Shown one piece after another: positions 49,410 to 52,601 of a stretch of 64,000 nucleotides of DNA. The stretch is taken from the NCBI GenBank assembly GCA_964514585.1, contig CAZETU010000001.1:210523-274522 (forward strand), read 5' to 3'. The position numbers were made by a program, and so were the translations under genes. A model generated the notes under the pieces. That model was given only the letters and a program-made list of their open reading frames with translations. It did not search any database and was not told the origin of the DNA. The number at the start of each line of letters is the position of its first letter. Position 1 is the first letter of the stretch. This DNA is from Candidatus Woesearchaeota archaeon (GTDB lineage: Archaea > Nanobdellota > Nanobdellia > Pacearchaeales > GW2011-AR1).

Positions 49410-49440
49410 TTCTTAAATAGTTTGTATTTCTGATTAATTT

Positions 49441-49566
49441 ATGGAAAAACTTGAGATTGCGACAGATATGGACGGCGCAGATCTCCGATGCAAAGGATGG
49501 TGCCACGATTTTAGCCCAGGAACTGTTGGTTACAAAAGTACTCCAGCAATAGAATATTTTGAATAA
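49441..49566 (+). CDS. Putative RiPP precursor peptide (41 aa), absent from the ORF track
   Basis: MEKLEIATDMDGADLRCKGWCHDFSPGTVGYKSTPAIEYFE*; TTAAATA box about 22 nt upstream; 32 nt before the radical SAM gene. Confidence 0.65.
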   Translation: MEKLEIATDMDGADLRCKGWCHDFSPGTVGYKSTPAIEYFE

Positions 49567-49598
49567 ATTTTTATTTAATATTCTAGGAATAACCATAG

Positions 49599-50981
49599 AT
49601 GAAACTTTCCAAATTAGCCAGAATCTACGAATTTGGAGGTGAAGATAAATTTTATTATGTCATCCGCCATAGTATATTAAACAAGTCCTTCATTTTTTCC
49701 GAAGAAGAATATGAACAATTAATTGATTCTTTAAAATCAGGCGAAGACAACGATGTAATTCAAGAGCTAAGAGTAAATCATATAATTGTCGGAAACAACT
49801 ACAAAGAAGAAAAGTTTATCGATTTTTTAAAAGATAATTATAATTCCAACAAATTTAGTTTAGAAATTGTTTATCTAATATTTAATTCCAATTGCAATCT
49901 AAAATGTAAATATTGCTATGTTGAAAAAAGTACAGACCCAAAATTCTCTCATCAATCAATGGATGAGCCTACCTTCGAAAAAACAATGACATGTATAGAA
50001 AGAATAATATCTAAAGCAAACAAAAAGAAAATCAATTTCATTTTTTACGGATCAGAACCCTTAATGGCAAAAGATATGATTTCAAAAAGTCTAGAAAGAA
50101 TATCGGCGGCCTGTAAAAACACAGAAACAGAAACAGAATTTAATATTACGACAAACGGGACATTATTTGATAATCAGATTCTAGAAATATTCAAAAAGTA
50201 CAAAGTCAAAGTTTCGGTGTCACTAGATGGACCAAAAGAAGTCAATGACCAAATGAGAGTGACCCAAGAAAACCATGGAACTTTCGAAGAAATATCCTCA
50301 TCTCTAGAAATGTTAAATGAAAAAGAAATCCCTTTCGGTATATCATGTACGATAGGACCGCATAATATCAACACCCTAAAGGAAAATATAGAACTCTTTA
50401 AAAAAATGGGGGCGACAAGCATCGGGTTCAATATATTACTCAATGCACGTTACTACAAAATTCCTCAAGTGCCATTAAACAAATTAAATGATAATCTTAT
50501 TGCAGCTTCAGAAGTAGCAAGATTACAAGGCATTTATGAGGATCGCGTTCAAAGAAAATACAGAGCATTTCATAATTCAATCCCAAGATTAAAAGATTGT
50601 GGAGGTGTAGGAAATCAACTAGTTTTTTTCCCAAATGGAGACATTGGCGTTTGCGAAGCCCATTTGTGTAATCGAAAATACGAAGTAGGAACCGTCGACG
50701 ACTTTGAATTAGACAACATTAAAAACAATGACATAATAAAACTCTGGACCGAAAGATATCCCCTTAATATGCCTGAATGCACATATTGTCCAGCAATCGG
50801 AATCTGCGGAGGAGGCTGTCCCTTCAACGCCGAAACAAGAATGAAGAATTTAAAAAAACTAGACAAACCATTTTGCATTCACACAACAAAAATTTTAGAT
50901 TGGCTACTGGAAAAATCTGTCTCAGAAAAAACTGGAGAAAAAGACCTTTACATGAGAGACATTTCATTTATGTTCCAATAA
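49599..50981 (+). CDS. Radical SAM/SPASM-domain peptide maturase-like enzyme
   Basis: CNLKCKYC; FYGSEPL; SPASM CGGVG...GVC...CTYCPAIGICGGGC; roughly 60-aa N-terminal extension. Confidence 0.9.
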   Translation: MKLSKLARIYEFGGEDKFYYVIRHSILNKSFIFSEEEYEQLIDSLKSGEDNDVIQELRVNHIIVGNNYKEEKFIDFLKDNYNSNKFSLEIVYLIFNSNCNLKCKYCYVEKSTDPKFSHQSMDEPTFEKTMTCIERIISKANKKKINFIFYGSEPLMAKDMISKSLERISAACKNTETETEFNITTNGTLFDNQILEIFKKYKVKVSVSLDGPKEVNDQMRVTQENHGTFEEISSSLEMLNEKEIPFGISCTIGPHNINTLKENIELFKKMGATSIGFNILLNARYYKIPQVPLNKLNDNLIAASEVARLQGIYEDRVQRKYRAFHNSIPRLKDCGGVGNQLVFFPNGDIGVCEAHLCNRKYEVGTVDDFELDNIKNNDIIKLWTERYPLNMPECTYCPAIGICGGGCPFNAETRMKNLKKLDKPFCIHTTKILDWLLEKSVSEKTGEKDLYMRDISFMFQ

Positions 50982-51015
50982 ATAATTTTAAATGCTGCAT
51001 AACCCTTTGAATTTA

Positions 51016-51465
51016 ATGAAAATAAGAAAAGCAACAAATAAAGATTTTGATCAATATCTAAAATTACGAAAAGAAGACATCTCAGAATACTCCAATTTAA
51101 TAAAAAAGAAAATTTCCTTAGTTCAAGATTTACAAATCAAAAAAGAGTTCGAAGGAATGTCAAAATCAAAAGAGCACCTTATCTTGGTCGCAGAAAAAGA
51201 AGGAAAACTCCTGGGCTATCTCACGGGATCAATTATTAAAAACATTTGGCAAAAGAGCGGCTATGTAGACGACATTTTCACCTCAAAAGAATTAAAAAGA
51301 AAAGGAATCGCCACGCACTTGATGAAATCATTTATTAAATTCCTCAAAGCAAAAAACATCAAAAAATGCAAGCTTGGGGTGAACATAAAAAATAAAAAAG
51401 CAATAAAATTATACAAAAAACTCGGATTCAAGCTTTCTCATTACGAAATGGATCTTTCAATCTAA
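51016..51465 (+). CDS. GNAT family N-acetyltransferase
   Basis: YVDDIFTSKELKRKGIAT, NKKAIKLYKKLGF. Confidence 0.9.
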   Translation: MKIRKATNKDFDQYLKLRKEDISEYSNLIKKKISLVQDLQIKKEFEGMSKSKEHLILVAEKEGKLLGYLTGSIIKNIWQKSGYVDDIFTSKELKRKGIATHLMKSFIKFLKAKNIKKCKLGVNIKNKKAIKLYKKLGFKLSHYEMDLSI

Positions 51466-51476
51466 TCGACAACTAA

Positions 51477-51827
51477 TCAACCAGTCCGCTCTCTTTGCCC
51501 AGCGAGCCTAATAACAAACCTATACTCTTTCTTCCTTTTCGCATGTTTACTTCGATTCCAATTTTGCTTAACATACCTAATATGGGCCTTTCTCCCAGGG
51601 TAGTACTTAACATTTCCCAGGTCAGTTTCCAAATAACACTTCCTTGAACCCCGAGCCGAAAGATAAATACTCCCCCCTGTATATAAATTAGAAATACTAT
51701 CTACATGAACATCAGGGAAACTCCCATCCGGAGCAACAATATCTGCCCGCATCCTTTTAAGAAGACCAGTCACCTTTTCATTTTGCCTATTAGGCAAAAC
51801 TCTCGTTGCAACAATATTATTTCTCAT
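51477..51827 (-). CDS. Orphan hypothetical protein
   Basis: 116-aa basic ORF with its own TTTAAA box upstream. Confidence 0.55.
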   Translation of the reverse strand: MRNNIVATRVLPNRQNEKVTGLLKRMRADIVAPDGSFPDVHVDSISNLYTGGSIYLSARGSRKCYLETDLGNVKYYPGRKAHIRYVKQNWNRSKHAKRKKEYRFVIRLAGQRERTG

Positions 51828-51864
51828 AAAACTACATAAAACAAAACACTTTAAATTTTTCTAA

Positions 51865-52215
51865 TTAAGCAAATTCCCTAACTTCAAAATAATCAGGTCT
51901 TATATTGATTTCAATTTGTTTTCCAAAATGGTTTTCATAAAGATTAACATATCTTAACGCAGCAACCCTAAACCTTCTTGTATTTTGAATAGTAATTGAA
52001 GATCCATCAAGATTAACAAAGCCAGCAACGCCAGACCCTCTTCTCGAATCCCCAAGTTTCCATCTAGTAGCGATAGTCCCAAGTTTCCCAGTTTCCATTC
52101 GAGGACTTCTAGAGTCTTTAGTTATAACAGTATCAGCCCTGTATTGTGGCCCAAAACTCTTACTAACAAATCGATTAACAACCCTAATAGTTTCTTTGTG
52201 ATCTCCAGGCGCCAT
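51865..52215 (-). CDS. Orphan hypothetical protein
   Basis: ORF with a TTATATA box about 21 nt before ATG 52215. Confidence 0.55.
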   Translation of the reverse strand: MAPGDHKETIRVVNRFVSKSFGPQYRADTVITKDSRSPRMETGKLGTIATRWKLGDSRRGSGVAGFVNLDGSSITIQNTRRFRVAALRYVNLYENHFGKQIEINIRPDYFEVREFA

Positions 52216-52286
52216 ACAATCCACAGAAAATTAACCTATATAAGAATTATTGCGATTAACTTCATTAATCTCAATAATTTCATGAT

Positions 52287-52601
52287 TTAAAGAACTTCAT
52301 AAAAATGACCATCACCAGTATATATAAAATGTCTAGCCTTCGTATCATATTTCTTGTTCAACCCAAAACAACCTAGCGCACAACCTCCAAGCATAAGAAC
52401 AATATAAGGCCAAGTATCCCTCAATTTATCACCTGCCTGCTCCACCACTTTATTCAACGGAACAAACTTAAAATCATAATCATCATGAATTTTCTTAGCC
52501 AAGCCAATAGTTCCAGCAGCCTGAATTAAGATACCCAAAATCAAAGCATTTCTTGCAAGGCCACGTCTACTCTTCCTAATATAATCTTTAACCATAAACA
52601 T
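52287..52601 (-). CDS. Orphan two-TM membrane protein
   Basis: Two hydrophobic helices; own TTTTAAG box upstream. Confidence 0.55.
   Translation of the reverse strand: MFMVKDYIRKSRRGLARNALILGILIQAAGTIGLAKKIHDDYDFKFVPLNKVVEQAGDKLRDTWPYIVLMLGGCALGCFGLNKKYDTKARHFIYTGDGHFYEVL

Follow-up and report, generated by a model that had tools for sequence, protein, structure and literature searches.

A small peptide gene conserved upstream of a radical SAM/SPASM enzyme in DPANN archaea: a probable precursor–maturase pair

Introduction

Does the short open reading frame (ORF) in front of a radical S-adenosylmethionine (SAM) enzyme gene in a DPANN archaeon encode that enzyme's substrate, and what would the enzyme do to it? 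The question is raised by a locus in a stretch of 64,000 nucleotides (nt) from contig CAZETU010000001.1 (assembly GCA_964514585.1, Candidatus Woesearchaeota archaeon), which is called the window here. A preliminary description of positions 49441-51465 had noted an ORF of 41 amino acids (aa), a radical SAM/SPASM gene and a GNAT acetyltransferase gene, and had proposed that they form an operon for a peptide made on the ribosome and modified after translation (RiPP). DPANN archaea, whose genomes measure about 1 Mb, are believed to depend on other cells to live on; to our knowledge, almost nothing is known of the small molecules they make. Precursors of about 40 aa may escape listing where short ORFs are filtered out, as happened in the ORF list behind the preliminary description.

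We find that the peptide and the enzyme are very probably a real pair of precursor and maturase that diversify together, a judgement drawn from comparison of their sequences across genomes. The central proposal of the preliminary description, a precursor-type peptide coupled to a radical SAM/SPASM enzyme with a RiPP recognition element (RRE) in a DPANN archaeon of the Pacearchaeota/Woesearchaeota kind, is borne out by the comparisons below, while its account of the core motif, the GNAT gene and the operon needs amending.

A conserved small ORF precedes the radical SAM gene

The putative precursor gene and its surroundings in the window are as follows.

49413..49419 (+): TATA-like promoter box TTAAATA, read from the sequence, with 21 nt between the box and the peptide ATG
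49441..49566 (+): putative gene for a precursor peptide of subfamily A with one core repeat (41 aa plus stop); an ATG ORF, supported by conservation
49441..49485 (+): peptide leader, residues 1-15, which starts with M-E-x-L-E; predicted RRE-binding segment
49486..49509 (+): core motif RCKGWCHD, residues 16-23; repeat unit (one to three copies in relatives) and putative modification site
49510..49563 (+): C-terminal tail, residues 24-41, which ends P-x-x-E-Y-F-E; F40 is nearly invariant across the family
49567..49598 (+): A+T-rich spacer of 32 nt in the sequence, containing a T-run and another TATA-like stretch

We gathered loci for relatives of the enzyme from species-representative genomes and metagenomes and translated their upstream regions. 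At about 45 loci with differing flanks, a homologous small ORF on the same strand ends 1-39 nt before the orthologous radical SAM gene, and such an ORF is present at nearly all loci with sufficient upstream DNA. Among 5.8 billion proteins, a profile search with the peptide returned 82 clusters (90% identity). When 1.84 billion representative proteins were scanned exhaustively with HMMER, 40 peptide clusters emerged, all of 39-107 aa. The invariant residues of the peptide are written in varied synonymous codons (Arg CGA, CGT, AGG and AGA; Cys TGC and TGT; Gly GGA, GGT and GGC), which indicates that selection acts on the protein and that the peptide is translated. By these sequence comparisons the 41-aa ORF is a genuine gene, far beyond what chance would give. 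It had been described as unannotated, which is true in a relative sense: gene callers did call it (as P0166) and its relatives, under no label but 'hypothetical protein'. A check against Pfam and NCBIfam, FibroRumin target models included, gave the peptide no family match.

Its promoter has the spacing that the preliminary description had pointed to, which put the box about 22 nt before the ATG, as at other promoters nearby. This spacing is not a product of chance. Of 34 regions upstream of homologous peptides, 29 have a TT[TA]A[AT]A hexamer that starts between -30 and -27, and among the long ORFs of the window a TATA-like hexamer peaks at -29 from the first ATG (11 of 58). Because peptide genes and long ORFs share this spacing, the peptide messenger RNA is probably leaderless; the peak in the long ORFs suggests that leaderless transcripts are common in the source organism.

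Whether the enzyme gene shares this transcript is less clear-cut, and the term operon stands in part. Co-orientation and short spacers fit co-transcription, and the 32 nt between peptide stop and enzyme ATG had been given correctly; several of the spacers in relatives are too short for a separate promoter. The window's own spacer, however, is T-rich and carries another TATA-like stretch, some 19-28 nt ahead of the enzyme's ATG. As a speculation, the T-run and the TATA-like stretch could act as a partial terminator or as a second promoter, giving separate or attenuated transcription of the enzyme.

That the small ORF instead arose by chance or encodes some unrelated small protein, and that the enzyme has another substrate, is very improbable. 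A+T-rich intergenic DNA often holds short ORFs, and the enzyme falls outside every curated family, both of which would suit such an explanation; it is contradicted by the conservation of the ORF, its co-diversification with the enzyme, the fixed promoter spacing and the synonymous codons.

Anatomy of the peptide family

The 82 clusters divide into three subfamilies with distinct cores.

Subfamily A (window): core (E/D)-L-R-C-K-G-W-C-H-(D/S); 43 clusters and one variant
Subfamily B: core R-C-R-D-S-C-P-C(-H-C); 10 clusters
Subfamily C: core R-C-x-G-M-C-x-G-S-C-S-C-P-T-G-H-C-K-C; 28 clusters

Only M1, R16, C17 and C21 are invariant over all three subfamilies, and E2 is nearly so. The start of the leader is shared, ME.[LIV][EKDR] being found in 71 of the 82, and so is its length: M1 and the first core Arg are 17 residues apart in 58 of 74 peptides and 15-18 apart in 72 of them, the window peptide having 15. 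The aromatic C-terminal tail is likewise conserved across subfamilies, with recurrent ends ..EYFN, ..KYFLN or ..YQFKKAA.

The core had been described as CxxWC with further aromatic residues. The Cys pair of that description holds, but the core common to the family is R-C-x3-C, and the Trp is not conserved across subfamilies, its position being occupied by Met, Ser or Arg in B and C. Within subfamily A, all 66 repeats conform to RC.GWCH, a pattern that leaves the Lys position free (Lys is replaced by Leu, Ser, Gln or Arg in some members), and the residue that follows is Asp in 54, Ser in nine, Lys in two and Asn in one.

The number of core copies varies. Subfamily A clusters have one copy (21), two (21) or three (one), locus L004 likewise encodes three, and the number differs between close relatives on the enzyme tree. 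The second repeat at L032 (L032:3797-3976, +) has lost both Cys (..L-R-Y-N-G-W-S-H..), which its close relatives L027 and L031 retain. Core repeats are rapidly gained and lost.

The enzyme is predicted to be an RRE-bearing maturase

The enzyme gene has the following parts.

49599..50981 (+): radical SAM/SPASM peptide maturase of 460 aa, assigned by Pfam (Radical_SAM, 1.7e-17), NCBIfam and the AlphaFold2 model
49599..49868 (+): RRE-like N-terminal domain (residues 1-90), predicted to consist of three strands with three helices after them
49893..49916 (+): CX3CX2C (C99, C103, C106), the motif of the SAM-cleaving [4Fe-4S] cluster, invariant in 28 homologues
50598..50876 (+): SPASM region C334-x12-G-x4-C352, C394-x2-C397-x5-C403-x3-C407 and C426, for two auxiliary clusters; motif read in the translation

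All seven SPASM Cys are, like C99, C103 and C106, invariant in the 28 homologues. The Pfam SPASM model did not reach E 0.01 on the window enzyme, though several orthologues match it. Named homologues come from metagenome-assembled genomes of Pacearchaeota, Woesearchaeota and 'Nanoarchaeota', which makes the assignment to DPANN reasonable.

The comparison with NCBIfam considered the best 25 of 72 matches. These are nearly all maturases of peptides or proteins, and every one scores under its curated cut-off. The best is the FibroRumin maturase (TIGR04136, 217.5 bits against a cut-off of 400, E 3e-64, residues 52-437). PapB (NF047865) reaches 161 against 340, CefB 138.5 against 600, anaerobic sulfatase-maturating enzyme (anSME) 137 against 349, QhpD 121 against 453, SCIFF (TIGR03974) 107.5 against 425 and TIGR04463 105.3 against 525. 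Among cyclophane maturases, YhhB scores 134.7 bits, DynA 126, AmcB 110 and FxsB 100; the triceptide maturases XyeB, YhhB, GrrM and FxsB lie at 79-135 bits against cut-offs of 310-450. The two groups differ in coverage, as the cyclophane families match only residues ~91-290, the N-terminal half, whereas maturases of Cys-bearing peptides match end to end.

An AlphaFold2 model built on an alignment of homologues (pLDDT, the predicted local distance difference test, 91.7; pTM, the predicted template-modelling score, 0.89) places strands at residues 7-13, 18-24 and 30-34 and helices at 35-47, 52-59 and 70-80 by DSSP, the topology of an RRE. Its top structural matches are ChlB, CteB, anSME and TigE (Z 30-33). 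CteB superposes on residues 4-444 of the model (Z 32.9, 410 residues, root-mean-square deviation 4.1) and TigE on residues 1-445 (Z 30.6, 406 residues); since these alignments span the model from residues 4 and 1, they cover the N-terminal recognition domains of both proteins. By its predicted fold, then, the N-terminal extension that had been singled out as a possible RRE is RRE-like, and the enzyme as modelled is an RRE-bearing radical SAM/SPASM peptide maturase with complete cluster motifs. The comparison of homologues suggested in the preliminary description has thus found both a conserved upstream peptide and an RRE-like N terminus.

Peptide and enzyme diversify together

We compared the peptide subfamilies with a maximum-likelihood enzyme tree of 32 rows, in which 31 enzymes belong to the family and a FibroRumin maturase serves as root. 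Three enzyme clades (SH-aLRT, the Shimodaira–Hasegawa-like approximate likelihood ratio test, 96-99) coincide exactly with peptide subfamilies B, C and A. Six positions close to the catalytic site of CteB were taken from PMC10288494, and the corresponding residues of the other enzymes were read from alignments to these CteB positions; the comparison is confined to these six.

Subfamily A: Y-Y-T-S-E-A
Subfamily C: Y-Y-I-S-Q-A
Subfamily B: Y-Y-I/V-S-Q-G
FibroRumin enzyme (L081): F-Y-I-S-H-G
CteB: F-F-T-S-H-Q

In the same alignments TigE has F-F-V-S-K-G and anSME F-Q-Q-S-D-F. Positions 1-4 of the family are near those of CteB (F-F-T-S) and FibroRumin (F-Y-I-S). A single position tracks the peptide subfamily, with Glu in A and Gln in B and C. 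The pocket is otherwise nearly constant while the core Trp gives way to Met, Ser or Arg, and this argues against a Trp cyclophane.

Proposed chemistry

Taken together, a RiPP-type pair of precursor and maturase with Cys-centred thioether chemistry is probably the best explanation of the locus. The peptide would be translated from a leaderless messenger, and its M-E-K-L-E leader would dock as an extra strand on the RRE-like N-terminal domain of the enzyme. The core R-C-K-G-W-C-H, some 15-17 residues past the start of the leader, could then reach the radical SAM active site, where abstraction of a hydrogen atom would most likely be followed by a bond between the sulfur of a Cys and a carbon in some nearby residue. 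The product would be a thioether within the motif, of ranthionine or sactionine type, with a loss of 2 Da per link, one unit being formed per core repeat. If the pair is real, the sequences tip the balance slightly towards one or two such thioethers per repeat.

Cys-centred chemistry is favoured by the invariant Cys pair, the near-constant pocket and the Cys-peptide maturases among the profile neighbours. Arg and the two Cys are the only core residues that persist across subfamilies, and the decayed repeat at L032 loses both Cys together. Of the two options put forward in the preliminary description, thioethers of the sacti or ranthi kind and aromatic cyclophanes, the first is the one that these observations support; peptides with a variable Trp position facing a nearly constant pocket speak against the second.

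Several points weigh against this explanation. The enzyme scores under every named-family cut-off, so its chemistry is not transferable by homology. The same fold class yields C-C cyclophanes, Lys-Trp links, cyclopropylglycine (TigE) and formylglycine (anSME), and all of these types score well on the enzyme. Proximity positions 5-6 are unlike those of CteB (E-A against H-Q). The RRE assignment is backed by predicted structure, whereas the first 90 residues, when searched as profiles against Pfam and PDB, returned nothing above noise and no PqqD/RRE signal. Finally, no transporter, immunity gene or protease adjoins the cassette in the window genome, which leaves release and export of a product unexplained.

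The same pair could instead form a C-C or C-N cross-link at an aromatic residue, the Cys serving, for example, for a disulfide or for metal binding. Such a link might be a triceptide-type Trp cyclophane, a Lys-Trp bond of the streptide kind or an Arg-Trp link as made by WprB, a chemistry reported in PMC11851443. K-G-W, R-x-x-x-W and W-C-H all lie within the subfamily A core, whose Trp is fixed in every one of the 66 repeats, and YhhB, DynA, AmcB and FxsB match the radical SAM half of the enzyme. We nevertheless consider such a cross-link improbable: Trp (in B and C) and Lys (in some A members) are replaced while the predicted active-site residues stay nearly identical, and the cyclophane families lack the full-length match of the Cys-peptide maturases. 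Thioether formation at the Cys pair is the more consistent with both peptide and enzyme.

Distribution of the cassette

Of the 301 genomes sampled from the order, 9 (~3%) encode an enzyme of this family; within the genus, 1 of 24 others does. In G015, of the same genus, an intact radical SAM copy is accompanied by a decayed one (C1:33306-34622) with three TGA and three TAA stops. Subfamilies may also meet in one genome, as loci L009 and L010 are contigs 1 and 5 of a single Pacearchaeota assembly (JBAZMK01) and carry an A and a C cassette. The cassette is accessory and patchily inherited. Such a spread fits a specialised product of a conflict or interaction type, not a core cofactor.

This bears on a further alternative, in which the modified peptide is an intracellular cofactor-like or metal-handling molecule that is not released, comparable to pyrroloquinoline quinone (PQQ), mycofactocin or the pyrite-induced Crp, its functional part being the Glu-Tyr-Phe tail or the Cys/His core. 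At none of the loci examined is a transporter, an immunity gene or a signal sequence found beside the cassette; the aromatic tail is conserved in all subfamilies, the core offers Cys, Cys and His, and CrpABC of Methanococcus voltae is upregulated on pyrite (PMC13692751). Set against these are the patchy spread just described, the decayed second copy and freely varying repeat number, which are accessory and fast-evolving traits, and the lack of any dependent enzyme conserved nearby. A role of this kind is unlikely on present evidence, and a specialised RiPP-type product agrees better with the distribution.

The GNAT gene is probably an independent neighbour

Behind the enzyme gene lies the third gene of the proposed operon.

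51016..51465 (+; ORF open from 50992): GNAT N-acetyltransferase; 149 aa when counted from 51016, where the start is conserved; Pfam Acetyltransf_1, 1e-18

The start at 51016 is the one in gene-caller models and homologues. The gene follows the radical SAM gene in the same direction, about 34 nt behind it, at five loci whose other flanks differ (the window, L052, L078, L079 and L080). On the enzyme tree the window falls with L022, L078, L079 and L080 (SH-aLRT 99); the enzyme of L052 is a C-terminal fragment and was left out of the tree, though its gene arrangement is the same. Linkage thus stands only for the window clade. The GNAT orthogroup is small (22 clusters), and in 8 of the 13 contexts examined it is found with neither radical SAM gene nor peptide in the DNA available, including GNATs 74% and 72% identical to the window's. 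Several of these unlinked genes are translationally coupled to unrelated genes (KsgA, a serine hydrolase, aminoacyl-tRNA synthetases), and linked and unlinked GNATs are intermixed on the GNAT tree. Among the 301 genomes of the order, nine have the enzyme and five a window-type GNAT; only the window genome has both. Since the orthogroup is found without the cassette, the tree is intermixed and co-occurrence among the sampled genomes of the order is limited to one, the GNAT is probably an independent accessory gene, a neighbour in the window lineage. As a defining member of the cassette it was rejected, its orthogroup being independent and sporadic.

The GNAT had been suggested as a tailoring or immunity enzyme, or as an unrelated neighbour. 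A three-gene unit, in which it N-acetylates the processed peptide or the core Lys or provides self-protection, is unlikely, though less so than the alternatives weighed above. Co-directional placement at five loci within what is essentially one enzyme clade would accord with it, GNATs that acetylate RiPPs are known (HaaN, NF041716, for instance), and at L026 an unrelated GNAT, 29% identical to the window's, replaces the HExxH gene described below. The window GNAT, however, reaches 18.9 bits against HaaN's cut-off of 250 and has a RimI-like family as its best NCBIfam match, the four other GNAT-bearing genomes of the order lack the radical SAM gene, and most of the peptide family has no GNAT. 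The contexts without a cassette and the intermixed tree likewise favour independence.

A convergent HExxH gene and other optional partners

The third gene normally seen in this family codes for a protein of about 245 aa. It is present at 33 loci, belonging to subfamilies A and C, and lies convergent with the enzyme gene, whose 3' end it overlaps (for example L001:5393-6175, -). In its product H-E-x-x-H is invariant, as is D-E-G 32 residues later, and Pfam has no family for it. The AlphaFold2 model (pLDDT 90.8) has weak structural neighbours (Z ~8), nearly all zincin metallopeptidases (M1, M3, M4, M9, M30, M32, M36 and Wss1); a Foldseek search with the model gave no match at E <= 0.001. On this modelled resemblance the protein is an obvious candidate for the peptidase that removes leader or tail, and a candidate new peptidase family dedicated to the peptide system.

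No HExxH partner was found in the window genome with a profile of 16 orthologues (E <= 1; assembly 89.65% complete), nor in the window by tblastn. In the window clade this partner is missing, and the GNAT gene stands after the enzyme instead.

Other arrangements were seen around this slot. At L026 the convergent position usual for the HExxH gene is taken by the different GNAT already mentioned (L026:2150-2635, -). Locus L045 has a radical SAM gene and a HExxH gene, with no recognisable R-C-x3-C peptide within 300 nt upstream (L045:3700-4000); a 20-codon ORF with C-x3-C about 250 nt upstream is all that was seen there. At seven loci a gene for a TehB-like SAM methyltransferase lies just past the HExxH gene on the same strand (L002:5432-5974, -; L006:2627-3145, -; L005:7179-7466, -; L030 and L050 among them); some lineages may thereby have one more tailoring gene, as an optional extra.

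Flanking genes in the window

Upstream of the cassette the window has a YjbQ/UPF0047 gene and one for a protein of the metallo-beta-lactamase fold. The YjbQ neighbour has a counterpart with 81% identity about 2 kb from the C cassette at L010 (L010:7472-7900, -). Downstream of the GNAT gene come two minus-strand ORFs and then the ribosomal RNA (rRNA) operon. The two ORFs (51477-52224, 116 and 119 aa), within positions 51470-52290, are rich in Arg and Gly, higher in G+C than their neighbours and atypical in composition; they have no match in Pfam and no conservation in 30 related genomes. A decayed HExxH copy was considered for them, since size and orientation fit, and was rejected for want of any similarity. 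A structured RNA was rejected as well, as the region has no Rfam match at E <= 1 and is unconserved in the 30 relatives. It looks like strain-specific DNA between the GNAT gene and the rRNA operon.

Discussion

The individual observations can be assembled into a wider scheme, which as a whole we regard as improbable: an undescribed RiPP class found only in ultra-small DPANN archaea. Within it, a module of ten residues, E-L-R-C-K-G-W-C-H-D, would be copied in tandem and so tune the number of rings; the cross-link would be new to radical SAM enzymes, for example a tryptathionine-like bond between Cys and Trp or a double Cys bridge that encloses Gly-Trp; the product would mediate interaction of an episymbiont with its host or a competitor; and the GNAT clade would make an acetylated variant that does without a dedicated peptidase.

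The more restrained explanation, a Cys-centred precursor–maturase pair, already offers a compact two-gene system that lends itself directly to testing. Precursors that naturally have one, two and three repeats, together with three co-evolving subfamilies, suit the study of substrate recognition and ring formation. The window contributes a single-repeat member of the clade that lacks the HExxH gene, and evidence that the adjacent GNAT is not a fixed component. The peptide family is undescribed and confined to DPANN archaea, and literature searches returned no description of it, nor of any RiPP-type system in these organisms.

Comparison with known systems

The window enzyme stays below the membership thresholds of FibroRumin, PapB, SCIFF, TIGR04463 and the triceptide maturases, as the window GNAT does for HaaN, and each of these systems is instructive for what it shares with the locus and what it does not.

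FibroRumin is defined computationally (TIGR04136 maturase; TIGR04135/PF27848 target), and no published chemistry was found for it. It is the best-scoring family for the window enzyme, its precursors in Petroclostridium (L081) resemble the window peptide in having a leader, a Cys-rich core and an acidic/aromatic tail, and its predicted active-site positions are similar (F-Y-I-S-H-G compared with Y-Y-T-S-E-A). The enzymes are nonetheless only ~32% identical, with a score about half of the cut-off of 400. One of 19 peptides touches TIGR04135 (E 0.055); the window peptide does not, and Pfam gives no hit. The DPANN peptides, unlike those of FibroRumin, have an ME-x-L-E leader and an R-C-x3-C core capable of tandem repetition, and HExxH and GNAT partners were not seen at L081.

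CteB (PDB 5WGG/5WHY), PapB (freyrasin) and QhpD share the architecture of RRE, radical SAM and SPASM domains and act on Cys-bearing substrates, and PapA also has repeated core motifs. CteB is 19-20% identical in sequence to the window enzyme. Precursors of the PapB type have repeated C-x3-D/E motifs; the window precursor lacks a regular C-x3-D motif, its core being R-C-x3-C-H-(D/S/K/N).

Among archaea, the nearest system characterised by experiment, and one that speaks for thioether chemistry here, is the CrpC/CrpA pair (TIGR04463) from Methanococcus voltae. CrpC shares the domain order of the window enzyme, and its cluster Cys are spaced almost identically. CrpC is an archaeal RRE-bearing radical SAM/SPASM ranthionine synthase that forms links in C-x-x-X motifs (CAGM, CAVD, CAGD and CPLV), and the recognition sequence of CrpA is the extreme N terminus of the substrate (PMC13692751). 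Subfamily C peptides carry C-A-G-M, as in the CrpC motifs, and the window peptide C-K-G-W. CrpA is a large protein with ten 17-residue repeats, in contrast to a peptide of 41 aa, and it belongs to a methanogen lineage with other partner genes.

Triceptides, or three-residue cyclophanes (XyeB, YhhB, GrrM/OscB, FxsB), are made by radical SAM/SPASM enzymes on short, often tandem motifs, and the subfamily A motif holds an aromatic residue. Their maturase families match the radical SAM half only, and across the DPANN subfamilies it is the Cys that are conserved and not the aromatic residue. The system is an RRE-dependent radical SAM/SPASM RiPP type, nearest to FibroRumin and to the ranthipeptide/SCIFF systems, with a precursor, a repeatable core and partner genes of its own.

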